Shown here piece after piece: positions 1 to 63,142 of a stretch of 64,000 bases of DNA (its first letter is position 1; each line of letters begins with the position of its first letter). The notes under the pieces were generated by a model. That model ran no database searches and had not been told where the DNA came from. It worked only from the letters and a program-made list of their open reading frames with translations. The stretch lies in NCBI RefSeq assembly GCF_029948125.1, contig NZ_JASAMB010000002.1:262479-326478 (forward strand), read 5' to 3'. A program made the translations under genes and the position numbers. Source of the stretch: Catellatospora sp. KI3 (lineage in GTDB: Bacteria; Actinomycetota; Actinomycetes; Mycobacteriales; Micromonosporaceae).

Positions 1-14
1 CCCGAGGATCCGCT

Positions 15-992
15 ATGAGTGACATCAACGCCGCGACCGAGACCGTCGCCGGAGCGCCGACCACGTCGACCGCCCCGGCGCCCGCCAAGGACTCGAACAC
101 CGCCCCCGCCAAGGAGCGCAACGCCAGCCTGTGGTCGGACGCCGGGCGCGAACTCGTCCGCAATCCGGCGTTCATGATCTCCCTCGGGTACATCCTGCTG
201 ATGGTCTCGATGGCGATCGTGCCCTGGTTGTGGACCAGCCGGGACCCTGCGATCTGCGACATCAAGCAGTCCAAGCTCCCGCCGTTCACCGGCGACCACC
301 TGCTCGGCACCAGCGTGAACGGCTGCGACTACTGGTCGCACATCGTGTACGGCGTGCGGCCCTCGCTGCTCATCGCACTGCTGGCGACCATCGGCATCAC
401 CTTCCTGGGCGTGACCCTGGGCGTGCTGTCGGGCTTCTTCGGCGGCTGGGTCGACGCGATCGTCTCCCGTATCGCGGACATGATCTACTCGCTGCCGTAC
501 CTGCTGGGTGCGCTGGTGTTCCTCACCGTGATGCGCAAGAGCGAGCTGATGACCCGTAGCCAGAACAGCCAGGTGGTCGTCATCGCGATCGTGCTGGTGA
601 TCCTCGGCTGGGTCGGCGTCACCCGGATCATGCGCGGCAGCGTGCTGGCCGCCAAGAACCTCGACTTCGTCCACGCGGCGAAGGCGCTGGGTGCGACCAA
701 TTCGCGGATCATGTTCCGGCACATCCTGCCGAACGCGATCGCTCCGGTGATCGTGGTGGCCACCATCGCGCTGGGCTCGTTCATCGCGGCAGAGGCGACG
801 CTGACCTTCCTCGGCGCCGGCCTGCAGGCGCCGGCCGTCTCCTGGGGCGTCATGATCGCGGGGCACATCCAGTACTTCTTCGAGTACCCGTACCTCGTGC
901 TCGTCCCGTGCGGGTTCCTGGTGGGCACGGTGCTCTCGTTCATCCTGATGGGCGACGCGCTCCGCGACGCTCTCGACCCGAAGCTGAGGTGA
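15..992 (+). CDS. Oligopeptide/dipeptide ABC transporter permease (OppC/DppC-type, BPD inner-membrane component)
   Basis: 325-aa ORF with multiple hydrophobic helices. C-terminal half matches the OppC/DppC permease EAA-loop region. Directly followed by two Opp-type ATPase genes. Confidence 0.8.
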   Translation: MSDINAATETVAGAPTTSTAPAPAKDSNTAPAKERNASLWSDAGRELVRNPAFMISLGYILLMVSMAIVPWLWTSRDPAICDIKQSKLPPFTGDHLLGTSVNGCDYWSHIVYGVRPSLLIALLATIGITFLGVTLGVLSGFFGGWVDAIVSRIADMIYSLPYLLGALVFLTVMRKSELMTRSQNSQVVVIAIVLVILGWVGVTRIMRGSVLAAKNLDFVHAAKALGATNSRIMFRHILPNAIAPVIVVATIALGSFIAAEATLTFLGAGLQAPAVSWGVMIAGHIQYFFEYPYLVLVPCGFLVGTVLSFILMGDALRDALDPKLR

Positions 993-996
993 GAAC

Positions 997-2031
997 ATGA
1001 CTGAGGTTTCGGTCGACTTCAGCCCCGCCCTGCGCGGGACCGAGCAGAGCGCGCCGCTGCTGCAGGTGGAGGACCTCCGGGTGGAGTTCCGCACCCGGGT
1101 CGGCGTCGCCAAGGCGATCAACGGAGTGTCGTTCGAGGTCAACTCGGGCGAGACGCTGGCGATCCTGGGCGAGTCCGGCTGCGGCAAGTCAGTGACCGCG
1201 CAGGCGATCATGGGCATCCTGGACAGCCCGCCCGGTTTCATCACCGGCGGCGAGATCCGGTACCGCGGCGTGGACCTGCTCAAGCGCACCGACGAGGAGC
1301 GCCGACTGGTCCGGGCCAACAAGATCGCGATGATCTTCCAGGACGCGCTGTCGGCGCTGAACCCGGTCTTCACGGTCGGGTTCCAGCTGGCGGAGCTGTT
1401 CCGCAAGCACCGCGGCATGTCCCGGGCGGACGCCAAGAAGCGCTCCATCGAGCTGCTGGATCTGGTCAAGATCCCGGCGGCGAGGCAGCGGGTGAACGAC
1501 TTCCCGCACCAGTTCTCGGGCGGTATGCGCCAGCGCGTGATGATCGCGATGGCGCTGGCGCTCGACCCGGAGCTGCTCATCGCCGACGAGCCCACGACCG
1601 CACTGGACGTCACCGTCCAGGCGCAGATCATGGGCCTGCTGGGCGAGCTGCAGCGGGAGCGCAACATGGGCCTGATCCTGATCACCCACGACATGGGTGT
1701 GGTCGCCGACGTGGCGGACCGCATCAACGTCATGTACGCGGGCCGGATCGTGGAGAAGGCGCCGGTGTACGACATCTACGCCAAGCCGTCCCACCCGTAC
1801 ACCAAGGCGCTGCTCGAGTCGATCCCCCGGGTCGACCTCAAGGGGCAGCAGCTGAACGTGATCAAGGGCCTGCCGCCGAACCTGACCCGGATCCCGGCCG
1901 GTTGCGCGTTCAACCCCCGGTGCCGGTACACGCAGGACGTCTGCAAGGCCGACCCGGTGCCGCCGCTGCACCAGATCCAGCCCGGCATCGCCAGTGCCTG
2001 CCACTTCTGGAAGGAGGTCCGCGGTGAGTGA
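997..2031 (+). CDS. Peptide ABC transporter ATP-binding protein (OppD/DppD-like)
   Basis: Walker [12 protein letters not shown] signature FSGGMRQRV, Walker [13 protein letters not shown], and the C-terminal oligopeptide-transporter extension with Cys motif (CAFNPRCRY...CHFW). Confidence 0.9.
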   Translation: MTEVSVDFSPALRGTEQSAPLLQVEDLRVEFRTRVGVAKAINGVSFEVNSGETLAILGESGCGKSVTAQAIMGILDSPPGFITGGEIRYRGVDLLKRTDEERRLVRANKIAMIFQDALSALNPVFTVGFQLAELFRKHRGMSRADAKKRSIELLDLVKIPAARQRVNDFPHQFSGGMRQRVMIAMALALDPELLIADEPTTALDVTVQAQIMGLLGELQRERNMGLILITHDMGVVADVADRINVMYAGRIVEKAPVYDIYAKPSHPYTKALLESIPRVDLKGQQLNVIKGLPPNLTRIPAGCAFNPRCRYTQDVCKADPVPPLHQIQPGIASACHFWKEVRGE

Positions 2032-3034
2032 CGTCGTGCTCGAAACCCGCGACCTGGTCAAGCACTTCCCGTTGACCAGGGGCATCCTCTTCAAGACCAA
2101 GATCGGCGCGGTACGGGCGGTCGACGGGATCAACCTGCAGCTGCACCGGGGCGAGACCCTCGGCGTGGTGGGCGAGTCGGGCTGCGGCAAGTCCACCCTG
2201 GCCAAGCTGCTGGTCGGCCTGGAGAAGCCCACCAGCGGATCCATCGTCGTCCGCGGCCAGGACACCTCGAAGCTCAGCGGCGAGGCGATACGGCGGGCTC
2301 GGCGCAACATCCAGCTCGTGATGCAGGACCCGTACACGTCGCTGAACCCGCGCATGACGGTCGGCGACATCATCGGTGAGCCGTACGAGATCCACACCGA
2401 CGTCGCGCCCAAGGGCGACCGTCGGCGCCGGGTCCAGGAACTGCTCGAACTGGTGGGTCTGAACCCCGAGCACATCAACCGCTACCCGCACCAGTTCTCC
2501 GGCGGCCAGCGCCAGCGCATCGGCATCGCCCGCGCGCTCGCGCTCAAGCCGGAGATCATCCTCTGCGACGAGCCGGTCTCCGCGCTCGACATCTCGATCC
2601 AGGCCCAGGTCATGAACCTGCTGGACGAGCTGCAGAAGGAGATGGGGCTGTCGTACATCTTCATCGCCCATGACCTGTCAGTGGTGCGCCACATCGCCGA
2701 CCGCGTGGCCGTGATGTACCTCGGCAAGGTGGTCGAGTCCGGCACGGACGTGCAGATCTACGACCAGCCGACCCACCCGTACACGCAGGCGCTGCTGTCG
2801 GCGGTGCCGGTGCCGGACCCGACACTGCGCGGGCACCGGGACCAGATCGTGCTGGAGGGCGACGTGCCGTCACCGGCCAACCCGCCCTCGGGCTGCCGCT
2901 TCCGCACCCGGTGCTGGAAGGTGCAGGACATCTGCGCCACCCAGGAGCCGCTGCTGCAGATCTCGGCGAAGTCGGCGCACCCGAGCGCCTGCCACTTCGC
3001 GGAGGTGCGGGACGTGGTCCACGCCACCCAGTGA
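2024..3034 (+). CDS. Peptide ABC transporter ATP-binding protein (OppF/DppF-like)
   Basis: Walker [10 protein letters not shown], signature [15 protein letters not shown], Walker [15 protein letters not shown] start at 2024 overlaps the upstream stop by 8 nt (the ORF track gives 1994). Confidence 0.88.
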   Translation: MSDVVLETRDLVKHFPLTRGILFKTKIGAVRAVDGINLQLHRGETLGVVGESGCGKSTLAKLLVGLEKPTSGSIVVRGQDTSKLSGEAIRRARRNIQLVMQDPYTSLNPRMTVGDIIGEPYEIHTDVAPKGDRRRRVQELLELVGLNPEHINRYPHQFSGGQRQRIGIARALALKPEIILCDEPVSALDISIQAQVMNLLDELQKEMGLSYIFIAHDLSVVRHIADRVAVMYLGKVVESGTDVQIYDQPTHPYTQALLSAVPVPDPTLRGHRDQIVLEGDVPSPANPPSGCRFRTRCWKVQDICATQEPLLQISAKSAHPSACHFAEVRDVVHATQ

Positions 3035-3241
3035 TCCGGGTGGAGTGACTCCCGGTGGCGAACGGTCGGGTTGGTTGAGCCTCCGGCCAGACCGTCCGCC
3101 ACCGGGTCAACATAGAGCAGGGCACCGCACGCGACGCGAGCGGTGCCCTGTGCTTACTTCCCACCCCACCACCTACCCCACCCCGCCACCGCCCCGCGCC
3201 TTCAGCGCTTTCCGTGCCCGCCCCTCCGGGCCTTCCTCGTC

Positions 3242-3350
3242 CGCCGGATTCGCCGGATTCGCCGGGTCCGCCGCGTCCGCCGCGTCCGCCGCGTCCGCCG
3301 CGTCCGCCGCGTCCGCCGCGTCCGCCGGGTCCGCCGCGTCCGGCCTGCGC
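3242..3350. repeat. Tandem 9-bp repeat array (about 12 units; core CGCCGCGTC x6, flanked by CGCCGGATT/CGCCGGGTC variants)
   Basis: Directly visible perfect and near-perfect 9-nt periodicity. It produces spurious RVRRVRR and PRPPRPP ORFs in two frames. Confidence 0.85.
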
Positions 3351-3393
3351 CCGCCGCGTCCGAGCGGGCGGTTTGCGCCTCGCGGGCCCGTGT

Positions 3394-3612
3394 GGGCATG
3401 GGGCGGCGGCGAAAGATTGCGGTCAGCGGTCAGAAGGTCGCGCTTGGCCGGAGCTTCTGACCGCAAGTGATGATCTTCAGCGGGGCTGGCGGGCCTGCGG
3501 GGCCTGGGGGGCATGGGGTGGCGGAAGATCGCGGTTTGCGGTCAGAAGGTGGCCCTGGGGCGGAGCCTCTGACCGTAAGAGCTGATCTTCGGCTGGAGAT
3601 CAGCTCTTACGG
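3394..3612. repeat. Duplicated ~90-bp structured module (unit 1 ~3394-3483, unit 2 ~3508-3595) plus a 3' hairpin
   Basis: Both units begin GGGCATGGGG, then GGCGGA(A)AGAT.GCGGT. Each contains a hairpin GGTCAGAAG(N17)CTTCTGACC (3428-3472; 3540-3573 with one mismatch). They are followed by hairpin AAGAGCTGATCT...AGATCAGCTCTT (3577-3608). Confidence 0.8.
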
Positions 3613-3824
3613 TCACAACCTGGCGTTTTCCGCGAGGGGCGGGCAGGGGACTGACCTGAAGCGGTGATCTTCGAGGCGGGCTGTCCCGCGATGCGGGAGT
3701 AAGCCAGGCATCCCCATGGGTCGATGCACCGAGAGTGACCGCAATCGGCGATCTAGGGCGATCGCGGGTCCGAAATCCGGGAGCGGAGAGCGATTTGGCC
3801 CGGATCCAGCCCGGCCGACACCAG

Positions 3825-3869
3825 CCTACCTGGAGGGCGGATCATCTATGCCCGTCCTCTAGGTAGGCC
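3825..3869. repeat. Dispersed palindromic repeat, family B copy 1 (short form)
   Basis: AGCCTACCTGGAGG-(20 nt)-CCTCTAGGTAGGCC. The 3' half TCCTCTAGGTAGGCCAGTGTCGAT closely matches copies at 27616-27679 and 62938-63003. Confidence 0.6.
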
Positions 3870-4017
3870 AGTGTCGATGCGTCGCGGAAGGCGCGACCGT
3901 GCGGAGTGCGGTAGCCGGCGACGGACGGAGTAGGAGTGCCCCGGCCGGCGACGGACGGAGCGGTGTCGATGGCGGTGGGGTGGGCGGCGGTGGGGTGGGC
4001 CGGGGTGGGGCTGCGGG

Positions 4018-4302
4018 TCAGAGTGGGCCGCGGCCGGCGCGGAGGAGGAGCAGGGCGAGCTGGGCGCCGTCCGTACCGAGCTCGGCGCGGAAACGGTCCA
4101 TGATCTCGCGTTCGCGGCTGAGGACCAGCCGCGTGCCGCCCGAGGCGACCCGGACCCGGCCGACCTGCTGCGAGATCGCGGCGCGCTCCTGCCACAGTGC
4201 GATGAGCGCGGCGTCGATGGCGTCGATGCGCTCCCGCATCGACGTGATCTCGGCGGCGGCCTCCGGCGCTGCGGTGCCGGTCTGCTGGGCGATGGCACTC
4301 AT
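4018..4302 (-). CDS. Chorismate mutase (small AroQ-class, about 94 aa)
   Basis: Size and sequence (ERIDAIDAALIALWQERAAISQQVGRVR...SREREIMDRF) are typical of monofunctional AroQ chorismate mutases. Its position next to uvrD1/pcrA mirrors mycobacterial Rv0948c-Rv0949. Confidence 0.75.
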   Translation of the reverse strand: MSAIAQQTGTAAPEAAAEITSMRERIDAIDAALIALWQERAAISQQVGRVRVASGGTRLVLSREREIMDRFRAELGTDGAQLALLLLRAGRGPL

Positions 4303-4351
4303 GAGTTACTCCTCGGTGGGATCGTCGCTCGTCGGGTGCCCCGGGCAGAAG

Positions 4352-4384
4352 AAAAGCCCCGGGCTCGTCGAGCCCGGGGCTTTT
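4352..4384 (-). terminator. Rho-independent terminator hairpin (GCCCCGGGCTCGTCGAGCCCGGGGC) with A/T-rich flanks
   Basis: Perfect 10-bp stem with 5-nt loop, followed by a T-run on the minus strand. Lies downstream of the minus-strand 5'-nucleotidase gene. Confidence 0.6.
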
Positions 4385-4536
4385 CGTCAGGTCTGCTGCT
4401 CAGTCAGGCGCGACCTACGGCTGCCGGGGCTCCGGAGCCATAGGTAAAGTAGAACGCCTGCTTGATCACGTCGCCAAGTATGCCACGGATGCCCGCCGAC
4501 GCAATCGAGCCGACCATCATGTGAGAGCCGTCCTGC

Positions 4537-6384
4537 TCAGCCGAGCTTGGTGATGCGGTCGGCGGTACCCGGTGCGATCGGGCCGGTCGCCAGGTGCGCG
4601 ACCAGCGCGTCGACGTCGAAGCCGGGCGCGGTGACCCGACCCGTGCCGCCGGTCAGCGCGGTGAAGCCGTCGCCGCCGTTGGCCAGGAAGTCGTTGGTCG
4701 TCACCAGGTATGTCGCGGCCGGGTCGATCGGGGTGCCGTTGAGCGCCAGGTTCGACACCCGCGAGCCGAGCGGCAGCGTGGTGTTGTACGAGTAGGTGAA
4801 GCCCGCCGACACCTGCAGGAACTTGGTCGTCGTCTGCCCGAGGTAGCCGGTGAACTGCTGCTCCAGCACCTCTTTGAGCTGCGCTCCGGTCAGCGACTGG
4901 GTCACCACGAGGTTGTTGAACGGCTGCACCGTGAACGCCTCGCCGTAGGTGACCTGGCCGGGTGCCTCGCCACCGGGGGAGTTGGTGTAGCTCAGCGCGG
5001 CCCGGATGCCGCCGGGGTTCATCAGCGCCAGCTGCGCACCGGCCGAGGAGGTCCAGGCGAGCTGGGCGTCGGCGATGACGTCGCCCAGGGGGCTCTCGCC
5101 ACTGGGCTTGGCGTCGCGGGGGATATCGGCGGTGATGCTGCCGACGACCCGGTTGGCCAGCGGCGCGACCGCGGTGCGGTACTTGTCCGCGATCACCTTG
5201 GCGGCCGGGTCGATCAGGGCGGGGTTGCGCACGTACACGCCCGGGGCGCTGGTCTGCCAGGTGCCGTCGGCGTTGCGTACGCCGTTCTCGACGATCACGT
5301 TGCGCGCCGCGATGGAGCTGAACGTGCGGGTGTGGCGGTCCATCGTCATGGTGATGTCGGTGACCAGGGTGCCGTTGGTGCCCGCGCTGGTGACCACGAC
5401 CGGCTTGCCGGTCGCGTTCGGCAGCGAGCAGGAGTAGAACCGGTGCGTGTGGCCGGAGACCACGACGCCGAACTCGTCGCGCAGCCCGGCCACGATCGGG
5501 GTGATCGCGCCCGCGAACGCCGCGCAGGTGGAGATGTCGCCGGTCGGGCCCTGCAGGCCGCCCTCGTGGATCAGCAGCACCTGGGCCTTGACGCCGAGCA
5601 GGCGCAGGATGCCGCCCCACAGGTTGGCGGTCTGGATCTCGTCCTTGAACTCGACCGAGGTGATGCCTGCCGGGTTGACGATGGTCGGCGTGGCCTCCAG
5701 GGTCATGCCGACGAAGCCGACCGGCACCCCGTCGATGATCTTCACGCTGACCGGGGGCAGCACCGGCAGGTGCGTGCGCTTGTCCACCACGTTGGCGGCC
5801 AGGTACGTGAACTCGGCTCCGTCGAAGCCGTCGCCGTCCACGCAGCCGTCGACGGGGTGGCAGCCGCCGTTCTGCAGCCGCTTGAGCTCGATCACGCCCT
5901 CGTCGAACTCGTGGTTGCCGACCGAGGTGATCTCCAGACCGAGCTCGCTGAGCAGCTCGATCGTGGGCTCGTCGTGGAACGCGGCGCTGACCAGCGGGCT
6001 GGCGCCCACCATGTCGCCCGCGCCGACGGTGACCACGTCGCGTCCGGCGGCGACGTTCTCGGCCCGCAGCTTCTTGACCCAGGTGGCGAGGTACTCGACC
6101 CCGCCGGCCGGGTTGCCGACGACCAGGCCGCCGCTGCCGGTGGGCGGGTCGATGGCGCCGTGGAAGTCGTTGAAGGCCAGCAGTGCGCCGTTGGCGGTAC
6201 GGGTGGCCGCCTGCGGCTCGGTCAGCGTGAGCGAGACCGGGGTGAGGGGGGTCCACGCGGCGGGCGTGGTGTCAGCGCTGGATCCGCCGGTCGGCGAGAT
6301 CGCCGCGACGACGGCCACCGCGAGCGCCGGGGCGGCCAGCACCCGCAGCGCGCTCGTCCAGCCCCGATGGCGGGGGTGACTCAT
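4537..6384 (-). CDS. Secreted bifunctional metallophosphoesterase / 5'-nucleotidase (UshA-like)
   Basis: 615 aa. N-terminal signal peptide (RHRGWTSALRVLAAPALAVAVVAA). Calcineurin-like metallophosphatase motifs including GNHEFD, plus a C-terminal 5'-nucleotidase substrate-binding domain. Confidence 0.8.
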   Translation of the reverse strand: MSHPRHRGWTSALRVLAAPALAVAVVAAISPTGGSSADTTPAAWTPLTPVSLTLTEPQAATRTANGALLAFNDFHGAIDPPTGSGGLVVGNPAGGVEYLATWVKKLRAENVAAGRDVVTVGAGDMVGASPLVSAAFHDEPTIELLSELGLEITSVGNHEFDEGVIELKRLQNGGCHPVDGCVDGDGFDGAEFTYLAANVVDKRTHLPVLPPVSVKIIDGVPVGFVGMTLEATPTIVNPAGITSVEFKDEIQTANLWGGILRLLGVKAQVLLIHEGGLQGPTGDISTCAAFAGAITPIVAGLRDEFGVVVSGHTHRFYSCSLPNATGKPVVVTSAGTNGTLVTDITMTMDRHTRTFSSIAARNVIVENGVRNADGTWQTSAPGVYVRNPALIDPAAKVIADKYRTAVAPLANRVVGSITADIPRDAKPSGESPLGDVIADAQLAWTSSAGAQLALMNPGGIRAALSYTNSPGGEAPGQVTYGEAFTVQPFNNLVVTQSLTGAQLKEVLEQQFTGYLGQTTTKFLQVSAGFTYSYNTTLPLGSRVSNLALNGTPIDPAATYLVTTNDFLANGGDGFTALTGGTGRVTAPGFDVDALVAHLATGPIAPGTADRITKLG

Positions 6385-6543
6385 AAAGAGGCCTCCATTG
6401 TCTGCGTCGCGCTCCTATGCGCGACTGGCTATGCACATCCTGGGGTAGTCCGCGCGCTCGCGCCACCAGTGCCCGGTGATGTTTGGGTGACCGGGCGGTC
6501 AGCGCGAGGTGCTGTCAGCCGGGACGCATAGACTCACGAGACG

Positions 6544-8928
6544 ATGCATGCTCTCTTCGACCTCCCCGATGCCACACCGTCCGCACCCGGGCCGCGTGGC
6601 GGCCTGCCCGCGTCCGAGCAGGGGGCCCGCGGCGGCGACCACGCCCGGGTCGCGAAGCTGCTGGACGGACTCAACGAACCCCAGCGCGCCGCGGTGGTGC
6701 ACGCGGGCGGCCCGCTGCTGATCGTCGCCGGTGCGGGCTCGGGCAAGACCCGGGTGCTGACCCAGCGCATCGCGTACCTGCTGGCCGCCCGGGACGTGCA
6801 CCCGGGCGAGATCCTCGCGATCACGTTCACCAACAAGGCGGCCGGCGAGCTGCGCGAGCGCGTCGCGCACCAGGTCGGCAACCGGGCCCGGATGATGTGG
6901 GTCTCCACCTTCCACTCGGCCTGCCTGCGCATCCTGCGCACCGAGCACGAGCACGCCGGGCTGAAGTCGTCCTTCTCGATCTACGACGCGGACGACTCGC
7001 GGCGGTTGATGCAGCTGGTCTCGCGCGAGCTCGACCTGGATCCGAAGCGCTACCCGCCGCGGAGCCTGGCCGCGCAGGTGTCGAACCTGAAGAACGAGCT
7101 GATCGACCCGGAGGCGTTCGTGGCGAGCGGTCCGGCCCAGCGGGTGCTGGCCGAGGCCTACACGCTCTACCAGCAGCGGCTCCAGCAGGCGCACGCGCTC
7201 GACTTCGACGACATCATCATGCGTACGGTGCACCTGCTCCAGGCCAAGCCGGAGGTCGCCGAGAAGTACCGGCGCCGGTTCAAGCACGTGCTGGTCGACG
7301 AGTACCAGGACACCAACCACGCGCAGTACATGCTGGTCAAGGAGCTGGTGGGGGACACCGGCGAGCTGTGCGTGGTCGGTGACGCGGACCAGTCGATCTA
7401 CGCCTTCCGGGGTGCGACCATCCGCAACATCCTGGAGTTCGAGCGTGACTACCCGCAGGCCACCACGATCCTGCTGGAGCAGAACTACCGCTCCACCCAG
7501 ACCATCCTGAGCGCGGCCAACGCGGTGATCGACCGCAACGCCGACCGCAAGCCCAAGCGGCTCTGGAGCGACCAGGGCGCCGGCGAGCGGATCACCGGTT
7601 ACGTGGCCGACAACGAGCACGCCGAGGCCGACTGGGTGGCCCGCGAGATCGACCGGCTGTGCGACGCGAACGCGGCCCGGCCGGGCGACGTGGCGGTCTT
7701 CTACCGTACGAACGCGCAGTCCCGGGTGTTCGAGGACATCTTCATCCGGCTCGGGCTGCCGTACAAGGTCGTCGGCGGGGTGCGCTTCTACGAGCGCAAG
7801 GAGGTCCGCGACGCGCTGGCCTACCTGCGCGCGATCGCCAACGAGGACGACACCGTCAGCATGCGGCGCGTCCTCAACACCCCCAAGCGCGGCCTGGGCG
7901 ACCGGGCCGAGGCGGTGGTGGAGGCGCTGGCGGCGCGCGAGCGCGTCTCGTTCGGGGCGGCGCTGCGCCGGGCCGCGGAGGCCCCCGGCATCGCCACCCG
8001 CGCGGTCAACTCGATCAACGACTTCCTGGCGATGCTGGACGAGGCGCGCGAGCTGTCCCGCGAGGCGCCGCCGGAAGCCGTGCTGGAGCTGATCCTGTCC
8101 CGGTCGGGCCTGCTGGCCGAGCTGGAGGCGAGCCTGGACCCGCAGGACGAGGGCCGGGTGGAGAACCTGCAGGAGCTCGTCAGCGTCGCCCGGGAGTACG
8201 CCGAGCGCACCGCCGCCGCCGACGAGACCCCGACCCTGGCCGGGTTCCTGGAGCAGGTGGCGCTGGTCGCCGACGCCGACCAGGTTCCGTCCGACGATCC
8301 GGACCACCAGGGCGTGGTCACGATGATGACGCTGCACACCGCCAAGGGGCTGGAGTTCCCGGTGGTGTTCCTGACCGGCCTGGAGGACGGCGTCTTCCCG
8401 CACCTGCGCTCGCTTGGCGAGGTCAAGGAGCTGGAGGAGGAGCGGCGGTTGGCCTATGTCGGCATCACCCGCGCCCGGCACCGGCTCTACCTGTCCCGCG
8501 CGGTGACCCGTTCGGCCTGGGGCCAGCCGCAGTACAACCCGGCGTCGCGGTTCCTGGAGGAGCTGCCGCCGGAGCTGCTCGACTGGAAGCGCACCGCGGA
8601 CTCGGTCAGCTCGTGGGGCGGCGACCGGGGCGGCATCGGCGGCCGCGAGCGCAGCCAGGAGCGGTCTTCGGGCAGCTTCGTCGGCGGCACCAGCCGCGCG
8701 GCGGCGCTGGCCAGCCGGATCGGCGTGGACCCGAGCAAGCTCGCCACCGCCAGCGACCTGGCGTCGGCTCCGGCGCTGTCGGCGGGCGACCGCGTCAACC
8801 ACCAGCGGTACGGCCTGGGCCGGGTGCTCGCGGTGCAGGGGGTCGGCGCGCGGGCGCAGGCGCAGGTCGACTTCGGCGACCAGGTGCTGTGGCTGGTGGT
8901 CCGGCACGCGCCGATCGAGAAGATCTGA
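6544..8928 (+). CDS. pcrA: ATP-dependent DNA helicase PcrA/UvrD (UvrD1-like)
   Basis: 794 aa. Walker A AGAGSGKT, UvrD-family helicase motifs (TFTNKAAGELRERV, VDEYQDTN, TLHTAKGLEF), and a C-terminal extension with a Tudor-like segment. Confidence 0.9.
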   Translation: MHALFDLPDATPSAPGPRGGLPASEQGARGGDHARVAKLLDGLNEPQRAAVVHAGGPLLIVAGAGSGKTRVLTQRIAYLLAARDVHPGEILAITFTNKAAGELRERVAHQVGNRARMMWVSTFHSACLRILRTEHEHAGLKSSFSIYDADDSRRLMQLVSRELDLDPKRYPPRSLAAQVSNLKNELIDPEAFVASGPAQRVLAEAYTLYQQRLQQAHALDFDDIIMRTVHLLQAKPEVAEKYRRRFKHVLVDEYQDTNHAQYMLVKELVGDTGELCVVGDADQSIYAFRGATIRNILEFERDYPQATTILLEQNYRSTQTILSAANAVIDRNADRKPKRLWSDQGAGERITGYVADNEHAEADWVAREIDRLCDANAARPGDVAVFYRTNAQSRVFEDIFIRLGLPYKVVGGVRFYERKEVRDALAYLRAIANEDDTVSMRRVLNTPKRGLGDRAEAVVEALAARERVSFGAALRRAAEAPGIATRAVNSINDFLAMLDEARELSREAPPEAVLELILSRSGLLAELEASLDPQDEGRVENLQELVSVAREYAERTAAADETPTLAGFLEQVALVADADQVPSDDPDHQGVVTMMTLHTAKGLEFPVVFLTGLEDGVFPHLRSLGEVKELEEERRLAYVGITRARHRLYLSRAVTRSAWGQPQYNPASRFLEELPPELLDWKRTADSVSSWGGDRGGIGGRERSQERSSGSFVGGTSRAAALASRIGVDPSKLATASDLASAPALSAGDRVNHQRYGLGRVLAVQGVGARAQAQVDFGDQVLWLVVRHAPIEKI

Positions 8929-8969
8929 CCGCGGCTCTCCACCGCGACGCGAAAGACATGCGGAAAGAC

Positions 8970-9001
8970 GTGTGGCCCGGATCGGGGGATCCGGGCCACA
9001 C
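8970..9001. terminator. Bidirectional terminator hairpin GTGTGGCCCGGATC-GGGG-GATCCGGGCCACAC
   Basis: Perfect 14-bp inverted repeat between convergent pcrA (+) and the M23 peptidase (-). Confidence 0.6.
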
Positions 9002-9050
9002 GTTCTTGGGGGGATGGGGTGGTGCTGGGGATGGGCGGGTCGGTGGGCTG

Positions 9051-9818
9051 TCAGCAGCCGGTGTCGATACCGCGGGCCTTCAGCCACGGGGCGGGGTCGA
9101 CCTGGTTCCACATGCTGCCCTGGTGCACCTCGAAGTGCAGGTGGGGGCCGGTGGAGTCACCGGTGGAGCCCTCGTACCCGAGGATGTCGCCGGCCTTGAC
9201 CGTGTCGCCGACCTGCACCGCCTCGCGGTTCATGTGGGCGTAGTGGGTGTAGTAGCCGTTGCCGTGGTCGACCACGACCGAGATGCCGTACCCGGTGTAG
9301 ACCCAGCCCGCCGCGAAGACGGTGCCGGGGCCGACGGCGCGGATGGCGGTGTTCTCCGGCATGGCGAAGTCGACGCCCTTGTGCATCGTGCCCCAGCGGG
9401 GGCCGAAGCAGGAGCTGACCGGGGAGCCCTGCATGGGGCTGCTCCACATGGCCTTGGCCTTGGGCGCGGCGGCTTTGGCCTTCGCCGGGGCAGCCTGCTT
9501 GGCCTTGGCCGGGGCGGCCTGCTTCGCCTTGCTCTTGGCGGGGGTGCTGCTCTTGGTGCTCTTGGTGCTGCGGGTGGAGCGGTCAGCCCGCTCGGCGACA
9601 GCCTCCCGCTTGGCGGTGGCCTCAGCCGCGACGGTGGTCAGCGACTTGCTGGGGGCGTTGTCGATGTTGGCGGCGACGAAGCCGACCGACGCCACACCTG
9701 CCAGAACCGCGATGGCGGTGACCTCACGGGTGCGGCCCTTCAGCCCGGCCCGGACCCGGTCGCGTACGGCGACCAGCTTCTCGCGGCCGGTCTTGAAGAT
9801 CTCGGTGCTGCTCTGCAC
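9051..9818 (-). CDS. M23 family metallopeptidase (LytM domain), membrane-anchored with Lys/Ala-rich repeat linker
   Basis: C-terminal LytM domain with HxxxD and HxH zinc motifs (HKGVDFA...YAHMNR...GPHLHFEVHQ). N-terminal TM helix. The linker AKSKAKQAAPAKAKQAAPAKAKAAAP is encoded by a DNA tandem repeat near 9450-9560. Confidence 0.85.
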   Translation of the reverse strand: MQSSTEIFKTGREKLVAVRDRVRAGLKGRTREVTAIAVLAGVASVGFVAANIDNAPSKSLTTVAAEATAKREAVAERADRSTRSTKSTKSSTPAKSKAKQAAPAKAKQAAPAKAKAAAPKAKAMWSSPMQGSPVSSCFGPRWGTMHKGVDFAMPENTAIRAVGPGTVFAAGWVYTGYGISVVVDHGNGYYTHYAHMNREAVQVGDTVKAGDILGYEGSTGDSTGPHLHFEVHQGSMWNQVDPAPWLKARGIDTGC

Positions 9819-10063
9819 GAGGGGAACCTCCGTTGGTGTCTCCGTTGACGGGAGCCATGTTGCCTGGTCAGAACGGGGGTCACCAAGCGGGCCATGAGCC
9901 CGATTCGGATACGCGGGCGGTTTTCGGGCGAGTGTTCTGTCCGGTTGTGCGGCCTAGGCGCACGTGGAGTCCCATTTCGACGAAGTGACCTCGGTCACCC
10001 AGAAGGCCCGATTTCGTGACGCGGGGCGGGGGCGTCGTAGCGGTGCGTAATGGCGAATCAGAC

Positions 10064-10096
10064 AAAACCGCCCGCATCAGAATGATGCGGGCGGTT
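10064..10096 (-). terminator. Rho-independent terminator CCGCCCGCATC-AGAAT-GATGCGGGCGG
   Basis: 11-bp perfect stem, with a T-run on the minus strand (plus strand shows AAAA before the stem). Lies just downstream of the second M23 gene. Confidence 0.65.
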
Positions 10097-10109
10097 CGGA
10101 AGAATGGAA

Positions 10110-10898
10110 TCAGCCGACGGAGCCGTCGAAGGCCTGCTCAATTTCGAGTTCGAGATCGACACCGTGCTGTTTGAACCACGGAATCGGGTTCTGGGCCACG
10201 TCGTTCACGTGGATCTCCAGGTGCAGGTGCGAGCCGAAGGAGTGGCCGGTGTTGCCGCCGAGGGCGATGATCTGGCCCGCCTTGACCTTCTGGCCGACCT
10301 TGACCAGCAGCTTGCTGGAGTGGCCGTACACCGTCTTGAGGCCGTTGCCGTGGTCGATGATCACGCAGTAGCCGTAGCCGCCGTTCCAGCCGGCGAGGAT
10401 GACGGTCCCGTCGTGCACCGCCCCGAACGGCGTGCCCTCGCTGAGTGCCAGGTCGACACCCTTGTGCATCTTCCCCCAGCGCATCGCGAACCCGGAGGTG
10501 ATGCGGAAGTTGTGGAAGGGGAGCAGCCAGGCGTTCGGCGCTGCGGTGATCGAGGTGCTGAGCGTGCGGTCGTCGCCGCGGCTGGCCCGGTCGGCGGCCT
10601 CCGCGCGGGCGCTGCTCGACTCGGTGATGGCGGTGGTGTCACCGCTGAGGGCGTCGGTCTTGGCGTCCGAGATGCCGGCTCCGGCACCGAAGGCCACGAT
10701 TCCCGCGCCGACGAACGCGGTGGTGATGACGGCCGCGTACCTGCTGCGGGGCGGCGTGGCCACCCTGCGGCGGCCGCGGTAGCGGTCGCTCTCAGTCGAC
10801 ACCTCTGGCCGGTACTGCACCTGTAACGCCTCCGTCATCGGTGGCGCCGCCGGATCGCGACGCTCTGTCACCCTCTTTTGGATGGCACTGCGGGACAA
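10110..10898 (-). CDS. M23 family metallopeptidase (LytM domain), paralog 2
   Basis: HKGVDLA...YGHSSK...GSHLHLEIHVN motifs and a TM segment. True start may be the internal Met at about 10838. Confidence 0.8.
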   Translation of the reverse strand: MSRSAIQKRVTERRDPAAPPMTEALQVQYRPEVSTESDRYRGRRRVATPPRSRYAAVITTAFVGAGIVAFGAGAGISDAKTDALSGDTTAITESSSARAEAADRASRGDDRTLSTSITAAPNAWLLPFHNFRITSGFAMRWGKMHKGVDLALSEGTPFGAVHDGTVILAGWNGGYGYCVIIDHGNGLKTVYGHSSKLLVKVGQKVKAGQIIALGGNTGHSFGSHLHLEIHVNDVAQNPIPWFKQHGVDLELEIEQAFDGSVG

Positions 10899-11006
10899 CT
10901 TAACGAACCCGTAGGGGTGGGCACAAGCTCCTGTCCGTCATCCCTTAGCTATCAGTGCGACTGTCCGGCCCGAATATCCCGTTTATGTCCCTATTCATCC
11001 AGATTT

Positions 11007-11033
11007 CCAGTGATCACTCTCAGTGATCACTGG
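11007..11033. promoter_or_regulatory. Perfect 27-bp palindrome CCAGTGATCACT-CTC-AGTGATCACTGG in a divergent promoter region
   Basis: Perfect inverted repeat with 12-bp arms, each containing TGATCA. Lies between the M23 peptidase (-) and the B12-binding protein gene (+) at 11148. Confidence 0.5.
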
Positions 11034-11147
11034 TTGGGCAGCGGGTATATACAGGTGTCGCAGTGCGATGTGAGGCGACCGCTGGTGGTGACCGTCGGCG
11101 GGTGGGTTACCGTTCGTTAAGGTCAGTACGGCGAGAGGTGAGCACTG

Positions 11148-11555
11148 ATGGGCACTCGTATTCGCGTGGTCGTGGCCAAGCCCGGCCTCGACGGGCACGA
11201 CCGCGGCGCGAAAGTGGTGGCCAGGGCCCTGCGCGACGCGGGTATGGAGGTCATCTACACCGGCCTGCACCAGACGGCCGAGCAGATCGTGGAGACCGCG
11301 ATCCAGGAGGACGCGGACGCGGTCGGCCTGTCCGTGCTGTCCGGCGCGCACATGACGCTGTTCCCCCGGGTGGTCGAGCTGCTGCGCGAGCGCGGCGCCG
11401 ACGACATGGTGGTGTTCGGCGGCGGCATCATCCCCGAGGCGGACATCCCCGAGCTGGAGCGGCTGGGCGTGGCCAAGGTGTTCACCCCCGGCGCGACGAC
11501 GCACTCGATCGTCGACTGGGTGCGCGCGAACGTGGCGACGTCGCAGCCCGCCTGA
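11148..11555 (+). CDS. Cobalamin-binding domain protein (methylmalonyl-/isobutyryl-CoA mutase small-subunit-like, IcmB-like)
   Basis: 135 aa. B12-binding Rossmann domain with the DxHxxG motif ([11 protein letters not shown]) and a size typical of IcmB. Confidence 0.7.
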
Positions 11556-11567
11556 CCGGCGTACACG

Positions 11568-11605
11568 TATATAGAGGCGCCCGCCGGAGCGGGCGCCTCT
11601 ATATA
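11568..11605 (+). terminator. Rho-independent terminator TATATAGAGGCGCCCGC-CGGA-GCGGGCGCCTCTATATA
   Basis: 17-bp perfect inverted repeat immediately after the stop of the B12-binding gene. Confidence 0.7.
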
Positions 11606-11834
11606 CGGTCAAACGAATAGGGGAGGAGCCGGACGCACCCCTCACACGCCCGGCTCCTCTATGCACGACGCCCCGCCGCCACCCCTCGACCGACAGGGCA
11701 TCGGCCGTTTGTGTCTTCCCGCCTGGCCTTTCGGTTCAGCGCTCCGACATCAGACTCAACGAGGGTTTCCGCGGGGGGTTACGGGCATCCGGCGGGTCAC
11801 CGAAACGGGTGACGGGCTGCTACGTTCCCCCCTC

Positions 11835-12518
11835 ATGACCTCCCCTGACACGGCGGCCGGCCAGCCAGGCACCGCCGACTTCCCCACCCTGCACAAGGCG
11901 ATCCCCGCCGGGCTTCCGTTCGAGGTCCGGCTGACCTCGGGCTGGGGCCACGCGTTGCGTCACCGCCGCGCCGAAATCATCATGTTGTACGTCTTCGGCC
12001 TGCTCTTCCTGGTCGGCGCCCTCTACTTCATCACCGGCCCCGATGAGATCGTGCACAGCAACCGAGGCGACTGGGACTCGCACGTGCTCGGCTGGGTGAC
12101 CCTCGCGATGGCACTGTTCTTCCTGCTCTCGACGCCGGTCACCACCTGGTGGCTGATGCGCAGGCCGGTCCTGCTGGCCGCTGACGCCCATGGCGTGTTC
12201 GTCCGCCCGAACGGCGACAAGGACCGGGCGTTGCACCTGCCCTGGGCCACGATCGAGACCGTGGCCGTGCGGCGGTGGCGTGGGCCGCAGTTGATCGTCA
12301 AGCCGCGAGACGCGCGCATCGAGGACCAGTTCAAGCTCAAGCAGCAGGCACGCGGTGTGGATCAGCGGGCCGGGGTGGCGATCGCGCAGAAGCTGCGCAT
12401 GCGCAAGCTCGGCACCAACGTCCACGTGCCGGTGGGCGGGGTGGCGCAGAGCCCGCAGGAGCTGCTGCTCGGGCTGCAGTACCAGGCGGCGGGCCGCTGC
12501 CCGATCGAGCTGGCATAG
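11835..12518 (+). CDS. Hypothetical membrane protein (two TM helices plus PH-like C-terminal domain); start uncertain (track ORF begins 11661)
   Basis: Hydrophobic stretches LYVFGLLFLVGALYFI and VTLAMALFFLLSTPV, then a soluble basic domain. No recognisable catalytic motifs. Confidence 0.4.
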   Translation: MTSPDTAAGQPGTADFPTLHKAIPAGLPFEVRLTSGWGHALRHRRAEIIMLYVFGLLFLVGALYFITGPDEIVHSNRGDWDSHVLGWVTLAMALFFLLSTPVTTWWLMRRPVLLAADAHGVFVRPNGDKDRALHLPWATIETVAVRRWRGPQLIVKPRDARIEDQFKLKQQARGVDQRAGVAIAQKLRMRKLGTNVHVPVGGVAQSPQELLLGLQYQAAGRCPIELA

Positions 12519-12696
12519 CCGGTGGTCGTCGCCCGGTGTGCAGTTGGGCACACCGGGCGGTCGTGCCGATACCCTGCGCTGAGGGACCGTTAGGCTGCGC
12601 GGAAGGCCCATCCAGCGGAGGATGGGCAATGGTCCCTACGCGTCGTGCCGGGTGTCCCGCCGCCGACGCGGTGGGCTGGACAGCGAAGAGGTATCG

Positions 12697-13875
12697 GTGG
12701 ACCTGTACGAGTACCAGGGGCGCGATGTCTTCGAGAAGCACGGCCTGCCCGTGCTCGCCGGTGGCGTCGCCGAGACCCCTGAGGAGGCCCGCGCCATCGC
12801 CGAGCGGCTCGGCGGCCGTGTGGTGGTCAAGGCGCAGGTGAAGGTCGGCGGCCGCGGCAAGGCCGGCGGCGTGAAGCTGGCCGACGGCGCCGACGAGGCC
12901 TACGCGCGCGCGAACGACATCCTCGGCATGGACATCAAGGGCCACACGGTCCACAAGGTGATGCTGGCCGAGACCGCCGACATCGTCGAGGAGTACTACT
13001 TCTCCTACCTGCTGGACCGGGCGAACCGCACCTTCCTGTGCATCGCCAGCGTGGCCGGCGGCATGGAGATCGAGACCGTCGCCGAGGAGCAGCCGGAGAA
13101 GGTCGCGAAGGTGGCCATCGACGCCAACCGCGGCGTCGACGAGGCCCTGGCCCGCGAGATCGTCACGGCCGGCCACTTCCCGGCCGAGGTCGCCGACCAG
13201 GTCGTCGACATCGCGGTGAAGCTGTGGCAGACGTTCGTCGCCGAGGACGCGACGCTGGTCGAGGTCAACCCGCTGGCGAAGGTGGGCGACGGCCGGGTGC
13301 TGTGCCTGGACGCCAAGGTGACCCTGGACGAGAACGCCGGGTTCCGCCACGCCGACCACGAGGCGCTGGAGGACAAGGCCGCGGTCGACCCGCTGGAGCA
13401 GGCCGCCAAGGCCAAGGACCTCAACTACGTCAAGCTCGACGGCGAGGTCGGCATCATCGGCAACGGCGCGGGCCTGGTCATGTCGACCCTGGACGTGGTC
13501 GCCTACGCCGGTGAGGAGTTCGGCGGGGTCAAGCCCGCGAACTTCCTCGACATCGGCGGCGGCGCGTCGGCCGAGGTGATGGCGAACGGTCTGGAGATCG
13601 TGCTGTCCGACCCGGCCGTGAAGAGCGTCTTCGTCAACGTCTTCGGCGGCATCACCGCCTGCGACGCGGTCGCCAACGGCATCATCCAGGCGCTGGCCAT
13701 GCTGGAGGGCCGGGGCGAGCAGGTCACCAAGCCGCTGGTCGTGCGGCTGGACGGCAACAACGCCGAGGCCGGTCGGGCCATCCTCGACGGCGCCGGCAAC
13801 CCGCTCGTGGAGCGGGTCGACACCATGGACGGCGCCGCCAAGCGCGCCGCCGAGCTCGCTGCGGCTGGGAAGTGA
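12697..13875 (+). CDS. sucC: Succinyl-CoA ligase [ADP-forming] beta subunit
   Basis: GTG start gives [20 protein letters not shown], the classic SucC N-terminus. ATP-grasp and CoA-ligase domains present. Immediately followed by sucD. Confidence 0.92.
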
Positions 13876-21221: not shown

Positions 21222-21230
21222 CAGTTCCGA

Positions 21231-21294
21231 CAGTTTCGGGGAGAGTGCTGGAATCCAGGTCGTGATTCCAGCACTCTCCCCGAAAGTGCACGAA
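21231..21294. repeat. Dispersed palindromic repeat family A, copy 1 (variant with inner hairpin)
   Basis: CAGTTTCGGGGAGAGTGCTGGAATC-caggtcgt-GATTCCAGCACTCTCCCCGAAAGTGCACGAA. Shares the CAGTTTCGGGGA...CCCCGAAAGTGCACGAA framework with the copies at 34571, 41943 and 58681. Confidence 0.7.
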
Positions 21295-21370
21295 CAAAGA
21301 TCGGCGCCCCCGCTCAGGACCCCACCTCACAGGGGTTCCGGGCGGGGGCGCCGATCGCTTTCGGCGGCCG

Positions 21371-27132: not shown

Positions 27133-27615
27133 TGAGCCTCCTCATCTCCTACGTCCCACATGCATCGACGGCAGGCTGACCTGCCGTTGTCACGCAGTGC
27201 AACGTCCGGCAAAGGTAGGACGAAGCTCGGCCCGGCACCAAACCCGCGGGTTGCAGATTCGCAACAGTCTACGAGTGGACCACTTGCGGATCTGCCTGCT
27301 GATTTGGTATTAGGAGACGGCCTGCCAAATGTAGTGTTATCGGGGATTATGCCCGATCTGGGACGTGACCGGGGCGACAGACTGCGGTCACATGGTGGAC
27401 ACGATCACTGCCCGGTTTGCCCTCGAAAGTCGTCCCAGATGATGGAAGATCCTGCCACCAAGGCCACAGGGTGATCTATCACACTGTTACCCACGGTTAT
27501 ATGACCAGGTCAACTGGCATTTCATAGATCAACTTCAGCGCCGGTTTTCGCCGTACCGCTGCCCGCTTCTCGCCTTTGCCCACCTTGCCGGGGTCGTCAC
27601 GCCCTGCCTGCCTTC

Positions 27616-27679
27616 GACGGTGGCCTATCTAGAGCACGAGAATCCGGAAACGGTCCTCTGGATAGGCCAGCGTCAATTC
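27616..27679. repeat. Dispersed palindromic repeat family B, copy 2
   Basis: GACGGTGGCCTATCTAGAGCACGA-gaatccggaaacgg-TCCTCTGGATAGGCCAGCGTCAATTC, about 80 nt upstream of the folD start. Present in inverted orientation at 62938-63003. Confidence 0.7.
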
Positions 27680-27758
27680 GAGGGCGGGCGGCGGGCGAGG
27701 GAGCGTGAGTGGGCATGTCCCGGTTCGGGGGGATCGGGGAGGTGGGAGGATCGGCGGT

Positions 27759-34570: not shown

Positions 34571-34632
34571 TGCAGTTTCGGGGAAAGTGCACGAATCTTG
34601 GCCCCGTTTCGTGCACTTTCCCCGAAACTGCA
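34571..34632. repeat. Dispersed palindromic repeat family A, copy 2 (perfect 26-bp arms)
   Basis: TGCAGTTTCGGGGAAAGTGCACGAA-tcttggcccc-gTTTCGTGCACTTTCCCCGAAACTGCA. Located between convergent icd and the 34697 gene. Confidence 0.8.
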
Positions 34633-34696
34633 CCAACGCGCGCCGCCCCCGCCCCCGCGGCGCGGCGGCGCGGCGCGGCGCGGCGCGCGGGGCGGG

Positions 34697-41661: not shown

Positions 41662-41942
41662 CCGATCCGCCCGCCGCGCCGCAGGCGGGCCCCTCGGGGC
41701 GCGCTTCCAGTCCAAGATCGCTATTCGCGGCCGCTTCCAGCGGAAGATCACTGTCTGGTGTCACTGTGCGCGCTTCAAGCCGACGTTATGACCCGAAGCG
41801 CTGATCTCCTGCGGAAGATCGGTGGTTCCGGTCGCGGTTGGGGCCCTCGCTCGGCCGCCGCGCCGCGCCGCACGCCACCGAGCAGCTCCCTGCCCGCCCG
41901 TCAGCCCGCCCGCCCGCCCGCCCGCGGGGCGGTGGCGTGGCG

Positions 41943-42004
41943 GCAGTTTCGGGGAAAGTGCACGAAATACGGCCAAGATTCCCGCAGTTTCCCCGAAACT
42001 GCAC
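41943..42004. repeat. Dispersed palindromic repeat family A, copy 3 (right arm degraded)
   Basis: GCAGTTTCGGGGAAAGTGCACGAA-atacggccaagattccc-GCAGTTTCCCCGAAACTGCAC. Confidence 0.7.
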
Positions 42005-58533: not shown

Positions 58534-58680
58534 CGCTGGTCCTTCCGCGTCATGTCCCTCTTCGTGCAGTGAAGGACGACGCTGTCCGACCTGAACTCTA
58601 GCCCGCAGCGGCCCTGATCGGCGCTGTGACGCGGACCATCCCACATTCCGCGATCACGCCTCGTGAGGCCACGCGCTTCG

Positions 58681-58743
58681 TGCAGTTTCCGGGAAAGTGC
58701 ACGAATACCGGCCTCGATACCTGCAGTTTCTCCGAAACCGCAC
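58681..58743. repeat. Dispersed palindromic repeat family A, copy 4
   Basis: TGCAGTTTCCGGGAAAGTGCACGAA-taccggcctcgatacc-TGCAGTTTCTCCGAAACCGCAC, in the divergent ppc/mfd intergenic region. Confidence 0.7.
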
Positions 58744-62937: not shown

Positions 62938-63003
62938 GAATTGACGCTGGCCTATCCAGAGGACGAAATCGCGAGAATCGTGCTCTAGATAGGCCACCGT
63001 CAA
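62938..63003. repeat. Dispersed palindromic repeat family B, copy 3 (inverted relative to copy 2)
   Basis: GAATTGACGCTGGCCTATCCAGAGGA-cgaaatcgcgagaatcg-TGCTCTAGATAGGCCACCGTCAATG. Confidence 0.7.
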
Positions 63004-63142
63004 TGCTAAGTCGGCGCCGTCGAGGGCCTGGGGGCGCCTCGGGGGACTCGGGCGCGGTGGGTGAGGTCGGGGCGCTGTCGGTGGAGACGGCGATGGCCGC
63101 CGTCCCGGGCGGGGCGGCGGCCATCGCGGCGTGGCGAAGCGG

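Follow-up and report, generated by a model that had tools for sequence, protein, structure and literature searches.

We analysed a 64-kb window of the genome of Catellatospora sp. KI3 (the whole stretch of DNA under study, numbered from its first nucleotide), whose G+C content of 71.7% is that of high-G+C actinomycete DNA. Two genes converge in it, oppF and a gene for a small AroQ chorismate mutase, leaving between them a gene-free gap of about 1 kb that holds two 3′ ends. Because the genes converge, no promoter is required in the gap. The genes nearby are those for opp, chorismate mutase, 5′-nucleotidase and PcrA. The features of the locus, and of one related locus elsewhere in the window, are as follows.

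1994-3034, plus strand: OppF/DppF-type ABC ATPase gene (Pfam ABC_tran and oligo_HPY), the last in an oppC/D/F run
3045-3158, plus strand: conserved two-hairpin element of 115 nt, just past the oppF stop codon
3051-3070 and 3087-3106, plus strand: arms of hairpin 1 of the oppF-proximal element (inverted repeat)
3118-3133 and 3135-3150, plus strand: arms of hairpin 2 of the oppF-proximal element (inverted repeat)
3160-3237, plus strand: C-rich low-complexity tract of the CCCACC/CCCCA type (Tandem Repeats Finder, TRF, rows 3160-3184 and 3161-3190)
3238-3362, no strand: 9-nt tandem array in the CGTCCGCCG / CGCCGCGTC register, with degenerate units at both ends
3382-3493, no strand: module 1, a G-rich leader (3382-3409) and then a family-C palindromic element (3409-3482)
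3497-3594, no strand: module 2, a G-rich leader (3497-3524) and then a family-C palindromic element (3521-3594)
3570-3615, no strand: perfect hairpin with 19-nt arms (3570-3588 and 3597-3615), 100% complementary, and an 8-nt loop
3652-3754, plus strand: two family-C half units standing alone, TGACCTGAAGCGGTGATCT (3652-3670) and TGACCGCAATCGGCGATCT (3736-3754)
3816-3876, no strand: family-B palindrome of the GGCCTAYC...GRTAGGCC type, arms 3816-3840 and 3852-3876
3903-4010, no strand: G-rich repeats beside the chorismate mutase stop codon
3903-3960, no strand: 28-nt repeat at 30-nt spacing, holding CCGGCGACGGACGGAG at 3915 and 3945
3971-4010, no strand: GGCGGTGGGGTGGGC array (15-nt unit), 2.7 copies by TRF, with copies at 3971 and 3986
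4018-4302, minus strand: small AroQ chorismate mutase gene (Pfam CM_2)
41715-41834, no strand: second family-C locus, downstream of a WecG/TagA-type glycosyltransferase gene (77.5 bits with covariance model R1, whose training set includes this copy)

Open reading frames of 43-182 aa are found in all frames of the gap, as expected at such a G+C content. Their GC3 of 0.66-0.89 and GC2 of 0.60-0.86 differ from the values of the true neighbouring genes (0.92-0.96 and 0.42-0.55, respectively), a Pfam search of these ORFs gave no match, and no residual codon-position GC pattern was seen in the gap. A minus-strand (DAA)n ORF at 3173-3514 was rejected as a candidate gene because its codon pattern is due only to the 9-mer, with a GC3 of 0.72 outside the array. 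Lacking both the codon signature of the genome and Pfam matches, the ORFs bear out the original prediction that none of them is credible, and annotators should not call high-G+C ORFs in the oppF-chorismate mutase gap as genes. Searches for RNA genes were likewise negative. A permissive Rfam search (E up to 1) returned only chance microRNA- or snoRNA-type matches to the hairpins, far below gathering scores, and a tRNA/tmRNA search of the region found none. A consensus scan of the region gave no sigma-70-like promoter; its single terminator-like site, at 4354-4366, falls beyond the region, within which no such site with a T tract was seen.

The repeats that fill the list had in part been described from the letters of the DNA, and all of those described are present, far above chance, some of them with adjusted boundaries. 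The 9-mer array, previously placed at 3242-3350 with about 12 copies, spans 3238-3362 according to Tandem Repeats Finder (period 9, 13.7 copies, 88% matches, score 169, consensus CGTCCGCCG) and includes eight exact CGCCGCGTC copies. The two direct modules are present with a period of 112-115 nt rather than about 90, and each carries, as claimed, a hairpin with an N17 loop; the two lie at 3426-3463 and 3538-3575, with one mismatch in the second. The perfect hairpin reported at 3577-3608 is real, this interval being the inner part only of 3570-3615, and the family-B copy given as 3825-3869 extends over 3816-3876. Both direct-repeat pairs near chorismate mutase are where they had been seen (CCGGCGACGGACGGAG at 3915/3945 and GGCGGTGGGGTGGGC at 3971/3986). 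The statement that the region is not a CRISPR array was also correct. A CRISPR array consists of regular 23-47-nt repeats with unique spacers of similar length; the units here are either 9 nt without spacers or, for family C, irregularly spaced and in both orientations.

To place the gap in an evolutionary context, we used an OppF genome scan that yielded 80 Micromonosporaceae loci, the best of which was that of Catellatospora tritici (L001), with 98% OppF protein identity. The chorismate mutase of the window is 100% identical to the one recorded for Catellatospora sp. KI3, the single member of its protein cluster, and the species comparison is one between a single Catellatospora sp. KI3 genome and a single sister species. 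Over 13.7 kb the KI3 window runs collinear with C. tritici, at an identity of 95.1% for 2-3159 and 92.9% for 4017-13691. The sole break in this collinearity is 3160-4016, where 857 nt in KI3 face 209 nt in C. tritici. Inside the break, alignment is confined to the family-B palindrome with a few bases on its flanks; C. tritici has nothing that corresponds to the 9-nt array, to either module or to the solo units, nor to about 42 nt of the G-rich array. Neither the 9-nt array nor the modules are found at this position in any of the 80 related loci. Homology to C. tritici ends at 3159, the left edge of the C-rich tract, and a similar C-rich tract also follows the terminator in another locus of the set (L050). 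The C-rich 3160-3200 and G-rich 3957-4010 tracts are 75-78% complementary. That the two might be terminal inverted repeats of one large insert was rejected on three grounds: they are low-complexity sequence, the C-rich tract already exists in L050, and there is no other copy.

Convergent oppF/chorismate mutase synteny is kept at 56 of the 80 loci. Among these 56 genomes the median gap is 186 nt and 52 gaps measure 60-377 nt, so that the KI3 gap has about five times the Micromonosporaceae median length. The four long gaps belong to other genera (L002, L003, L004 and L046), which are the next-closest genomes by OppF identity (86-88%), and they contain unrelated genes: a 1001-aa BTAD/NB-ARC/TPR regulator in L002, ORFs of 483 and 448 aa in L003 and L004 that are distantly related to each other, and a 243-aa ORF in L046. 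As other genera carry unrelated genes in the gap, the junction is one at which sequence has repeatedly been gained and lost. The suggestion of a recombination or variation hotspot thus gains support from the sole break in 13.7 kb against C. tritici, from a gap about five times the median, and from the unrelated genes found elsewhere.

The presence of genes in the gap of four related genera also raises the question of whether a gene formerly separated oppF from chorismate mutase and decayed into the present KI3 sequence. A tblastx comparison of the KI3 gap with these four loci gave nothing at 35 bits or more, and no similarity was seen past 3160. With very permissive tblastn, the bodies of the four gap proteins showed no similarity to the region; every low-scoring match was to the L003 ORF's non-coding leader in translation, conserved terminator DNA included. 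Since such searches returned only low-complexity matches and shared terminator DNA, since the gap has neither a codon-position GC pattern nor a Pfam match, and since much of the region consists of repeats, we consider a gene remnant, which the original prediction had put forward, to be very improbable. A blastn search of 3360-3900 against plasmid and phage collections likewise gave no match.

By contrast with the variable remainder, the oppF-proximal 115 nt or so are the only conserved part of the gap. This element (3045-3158) was absent from the earlier feature list. Its mean column identity is 94% in nine genomes of Catellatospora type with OppF protein identities of only 77-98%, and the DNA flanking it cannot be aligned across those nine genomes. 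The RNA fold of 3045-3158 has a predicted energy of -77 kcal/mol (z -7.8). Its sequence hardly varies, and for this reason compensatory changes are seen in none of the 42 predicted pairs. A covariance model of the element (R2) gave strong matches at this position only, along with weak hairpin matches in the same place in other genera, and an Rfam search gave no match. The element is probably the terminator of the opp operon or a structure that forms or stabilises its 3′ end.

Its position recalls OppZ of Vibrio cholerae, a small RNA released by cleavage from the 3′ end of the oppABCDF mRNA. The likeness is one of position only, in that a strongly conserved structured element directly follows oppF; the KI3 element differs in having neither a sequence relation to OppZ nor a conserved target. 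Scans of short segments for OppZ-like pairing with the opp operon gave differing best sites in all seven species, none of them conserved, and whole-element duplex energies against the operon were uninformative in such G+C-rich DNA. OppZ-like autoregulation was rejected because no complementary site is conserved across the seven species.

Next, we examined the two hairpin modules. Module 1 has an inner stem GCGGTCAGAAG...CTTCTGACCGC and outer ends GATT/GATC, and it scores 76.7 bits with covariance model R1. Module 2 is a tandem copy of module 1 with about 81% identity (78.6 bits), the repeat pairs being 3405-3484 / 3517-3596 (80 nt, 81%) and 3382-3409 / 3497-3524 (28 nt, 82%). The hairpin of module 1 reads GCGGTCAGAAG-N17-CTTCTGACCG, and the mismatch in that of module 2 lies in CCTCTGACC. 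A GGTCAGAAG...CTTCTGACC hairpin was found in both modules and in none of the shuffled sequences. The unit CTTCTGACCGnAAGnGnTGATCTTC occurs seven times in 3414-3754, in both orientations, and two to four times more at 41715-41834. In the gap, the units start at 3414(-), 3458(+), 3526(-), 3570(+), 3597(-), 3652(+) and 3736(+), at irregular start-to-start distances of 44, 68, 44, 27, 55 and 84 nt.

The left arm of the perfect hairpin is at the same time the right arm of module 2; a third family-C unit, inverted, supplies the hairpin's right arm (3597-3615). Because the left arm serves twice, two mutually exclusive pairings are possible, 3521-3594 or 3570-3615; minimum free energy folds use the 3570-3615 hairpin. 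This three-arm arrangement, in which a central arm pairs with either neighbour, recurs at 41740-41833, with 65% identity over 94 nt.

A search with nhmmer, using a profile built from three family-C copies, and with covariance model R1 found family C at window positions 3409-3482, 3521-3594 and 41740-41813. The two family-C loci of the window align over 94-195 nt (E 4e-10 and 5e-8). Four other Catellatospora species (L054, L047, L050 and L039) have further relatives of it just downstream of pcrA, and the shortened copy in L039, which is outside the training set, was recovered by R1 with an E value of 8e-10. The same pcrA-downstream site is without family C in the KI3 window (8928-8965) and in C. 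tritici. When filled (L054, L047, L050) and empty (window, L001) sites were compared by eye, the flanks were too diverged to place the boundaries, and no target-site duplication was recognised. Family C is accordingly represented by two loci in the 64 kb and by a third locus type in four congeners. An alignment of six copies gives a 26-pair hairpin with arms of about 25-27 nt and conserved GATC ends; the positions conserved in it are GATC, at either end of the hairpin, and TGAC/GTCA, within it, and 10 of the 26 stem pairs show compensatory changes. Judged by these alignments and profile matches, the hairpin module belongs to a dispersed palindromic repeat family of about 74 nt bounded by GATC, an affiliation that the original prediction had not made. 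A metagenome scan for GCGGTCAGAAG-N12-22-CYTCTGACCG gave 13 matches, all of them unrelated hairpins without GATCTTC flanks. We also asked whether GATC itself is clustered, as nine sites fall within 460 nt of the region, and rejected this as notable because GATC is common in the genome (6.8/kb) and other 460-nt windows are denser, with up to 11.

These properties bear on whether the duplicated modules are genes for structured small RNAs, one or several. On both strands, the folding energy of the modules is well under that of shuffled controls (z -5.7 and -6.8), the family-C hairpin has been kept through compensatory changes in 10 of its 26 pairs, and the central arm has two alternative pairings (3521-3594 or 3570-3615). 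However, palindromic DNA repeats yield equal fold statistics without being RNA genes, and compensatory change is also expected of mobile palindromes whose DNA has to form a hairpin. Modules 1 and 2 differ by mismatches that lack strand coherence, A-C and G-T occurring on both strands, and the modules are missing at this locus in C. tritici and in the 80 related loci. Together with the lack of an Rfam match and of a promoter-like site, these considerations make small RNA genes improbable, and the earlier proposal of structured sRNA(s) finds no support as a conserved function, there being neither a match in Rfam nor a sigma-70-like promoter, and C. tritici lacking the modules.

Two further palindrome families are present in the window. 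The family-B arms at 3816-3876 are 25 nt long and 84% complementary, and the minus-strand fold of this palindrome has an energy of -49.3 kcal/mol (z -4.6). Further copies at 27600-27690 and 62940-63004 bring the number in the 64-kb window to three, and a homologous but diverged copy exists in C. tritici (L001 11222-11287). Family A, another palindrome, has three to four copies in the window (21224, 34571 and 41943). Within the window, families A and B are located mostly in convergent gaps and mostly just past 3′ ends. The family-B palindrome at 3816-3876 may form the hairpin at which transcripts of chorismate mutase end.

Such a location invites the reading that the whole gap is a functional two-way termination or insulation zone that would guard opp and chorismate mutase against collision and antisense transcription between them. 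In this scheme, C-rich RNA (from the plus strand at 3100-3350 and from the minus strand at 3350-3650 and 3900-4050) would load Rho, and stacked family-C and family-B hairpins would block read-through and 3′ exonucleases. GC skew is indeed negative at 3100-3350 (to -0.51) and positive at 3350-3650 and 3900-4050 (to +0.53), with values of -0.36 to -0.51 in the C-rich tract 3160-3237 and +0.45 to +0.53 in the G-rich repeats 3903-4010; given these opposite skews, each transcript would, beyond its stop codon, be rich in C and poor in G. On either strand the hairpins are very stable, family-A and family-B palindromes lie mostly just past 3′ ends, and REP/SPRITE-like repeats have documented effects on mRNA ends (PMC3184786). 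On the other hand, 52 of the 56 relatives manage with 60-377 nt and C. tritici lacks array and modules, implying that the extra 650 nt or so are not needed. Taken over 34 gene ends in the window, downstream sequence shows no general bias to C (mean skew -0.03), and the region contains no terminator-like site with a T tract. We regard a dedicated termination zone as unlikely.

We then compared the palindromes with described repeat families. REPs recognised by REP-associated tyrosine transposases carry a conserved GTAG-type 5′ tetranucleotide. The end motif of family C is GATC, with no GTAG in the alignment, so that by its end motif family C falls outside the REPs in the strict sense. It differs from REPs also in that its hairpin, at about 74 nt and 26 pairs, is about twice the REP length, and its host is an actinomycete whereas REP/BIME elements are those of enterobacteria and pseudomonads. 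The likeness to REP/BIME lies in short, G+C-rich, imperfect palindromes outside genes (3409-3482, 3521-3594, 3570-3615 and 3816-3876) and in an occurrence either singly or in clusters of alternating orientation, here - + - + - + +. REP/BIME elements, of which a genome has tens to hundreds of dispersed copies, are also frequent between convergent genes and variable between related genomes, and a bias to convergent gene ends is known for REP elements and for terminator-like repeats such as SPRITE (PMC3184786). The KI3 elements are likewise near the 3′ ends of genes that converge, as in SPRITE. Family C resembles MITE-like elements (Correia, ERIC, RUP, SPRITE) in its length, about 70-115 nt, in its inverted arms, some 27 nt long, and in a presence or absence that varies between species at the orthologous pcrA-downstream site. 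We know of no parent insertion sequence with ends matching family C, and a literature search for short palindromic repeat families of Catellatospora brought up none. From presence and absence at this one other locus, family C may be mobile.

The tandem repeats resemble mycobacterial interspersed repetitive units (MIRU) and other VNTR loci of actinobacteria, being intergenic, in a high-G+C actinobacterium, and missing from the homologous region of a related species (PMC3184786). Their head-to-tail units comprise 13.7 of 9 nt, 2.7 of 15 nt, and two each of 30 nt and about 112 nt. MIRU units, in contrast, are 40-100 bp long and lie inside operons, where they are co-transcribed, whereas the KI3 array has 9-nt units between convergent 3′ ends. 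A diversity-generating retroelement has two repeats of about 100 nt that differ mainly at adenines, beside a reverse transcriptase. Modules 1 and 2 (3405-3484 against 3517-3596) show 15 differences involving all four bases, and their neighbours are the opp, chorismate mutase, 5′-nucleotidase and PcrA genes; this possibility was rejected.

A bolder reading is that family C, perhaps with families A and B, is an undescribed actinomycete counterpart of REP, mobilised as single-stranded DNA by a hairpin-recognising transposase, that its clusters act as two-way transcription barriers between convergent operons, and that its active unit is the three-arm form (3521-3615 and 41740-41833). We offer it as speculation, to which we give little credence. 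As a separate observation, the opposite GC skews and the occurrence of the three-arm form at two loci might reflect function rather than drift.

The reading that we consider probable is that of a permissive convergent gap that gathered slippage arrays and REP/MITE-like palindromes, with template switching making the perfect hairpin. We are fairly confident that this is an ordinary variable spacer and not a new gene or RNA, and that the pile-up is recent and lineage-specific. Its history may be pictured as follows: 1) the first 115 nt or so, which are conserved, would most likely end or stabilise the opp transcript; 2) the remaining 860 nt or so would be lineage-specific, having arisen after, or been lost since, the split from C. 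tritici, at a site that is presumably tolerant, with changes close to neutral, as insertions would disrupt neither promoter nor coding sequence; 3) replication slippage would have expanded the 9-nt unit, the 15-nt G-rich unit and the 30-nt unit; 4) the family-C element of about 74 nt would have been inserted or duplicated, leaving two complete copies in tandem together with an inverted third arm and a pair of solo half-units; 5) the family-B palindrome would be an older interspersed element, probably the hairpin ending chorismate mutase transcripts; and 6) recent template switching between inverted units would best explain the perfect 19-bp hairpin. For the modules, a simple recent local duplication fits poorly, because they have diverged by about 19% whereas the two species have diverged by about 6%. 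Either the copies were already diverged when inserted, or an older segment was deleted in C. tritici.

With families A, B and C, the KI3 window documents three short palindromic repeat families in Catellatospora. Experimental work on the gap would be best spent on the almost unvarying 115-nt structure that follows oppF and not on the repeats. The significance of the locus for biology at large is small; as a fast-evolving locus, it could serve as a strain-typing marker in Catellatospora.

Directly 3′ of oppF lies a 115-nt two-hairpin element (3045-3158) almost without variation. Its mean column identity among nine Catellatospora-type genomes reaches 94%, exceeding that of the adjoining coding sequence. 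No match was found in Rfam, and the element could have a role beyond simple termination. A separate hairpin accompanies the neighboring genes:

4348-4388, 20-bp hairpin with A/T runs flanking both sides, between the 5′-nucleotidase gene (4537-6384, minus strand) and chorismate mutase

This hairpin is 83-94% conserved across most Micromonosporaceae loci and looks like a candidate two-way intrinsic terminator; its weak Rfam matches to F6 and NsiR1 fit a terminator-like shape only.

Family C, the GATC-bounded palindrome present as two tandem copies in the gap, was also found at the 3′ end of pcrA in four other Catellatospora species:

L054, 16300-16373
L047, 16379-16450
L050, 16311-16384
L039, 1-63

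In all four, it follows the pcrA stop codon and precedes the terminator hairpin of that gene. Both the window (8917-8935) and C. tritici have an empty site at the corresponding position. The 3′ end of pcrA, GAGAAGATCTGACC, is conserved and itself resembles both outer ends of one family-C unit, joined together.

Two other palindrome families are dispersed in the window. Family A consists of GCAGTTTCGGGGAAAGTGCACGAA and its complement, with three to four copies in 64 kb:

21224-21295, family A
34571-34632, family A
41943-42002, family A
58677-58705, possibly family A

No family-A palindrome was found among the 80 related loci. Because the family-A core, GTTTCGGG...AAAGTGC, is similar to the arms of the L054 and L039 family-C copies, families A and C may be related. 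At 34640-34690 and 41890-41930, family-A palindromes are adjoined by simple repeats rich in G+C, with runs of the GCGGCGCGG and CCCG types. The 9-mer array adjoins the family-C elements in the same layout; the combination of repeat and palindrome thus recurs in gene-free gaps of this genome.

Family B is of the type GACGSTGGCCTATC...GATAGGCCASCGTC:

27600-27690, family B
62940-63004, family B
C. tritici locus (L001), 11222-11287, family B
related locus L049, about 9425-9490, family B

Of the copies at 27600-27690 and 62940-63004, each is the reverse complement of the other, with identical arm asymmetries. This pattern suggests either that they were recently copied from a single source or that they are recognized in double-stranded form. 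A further palindrome, CCGCAACTCTTAAAGAGTCGCGGC...GCCGCGTCTCTTTAAGAGTTGCGG, occupies the oppF/chorismate-mutase gap of Catellatospora vulcania (L050, 11208-11275) and bears no relation to any of the three families.

The same junction carries genes in four related genera:

L002, 11126-14131, BTAD/NB-ARC/TPR regulator
L003, 11163-12614, ORF of 483 aa
L004, 1158-2504, ORF of 448 aa
L046, 8242-8973, ORF of 243 aa

The 483-aa and 448-aa ORFs share 26% identity. As the inserted genes differ among the four genera, the oppF/chorismate-mutase junction is a site of repeated insertion throughout the family.
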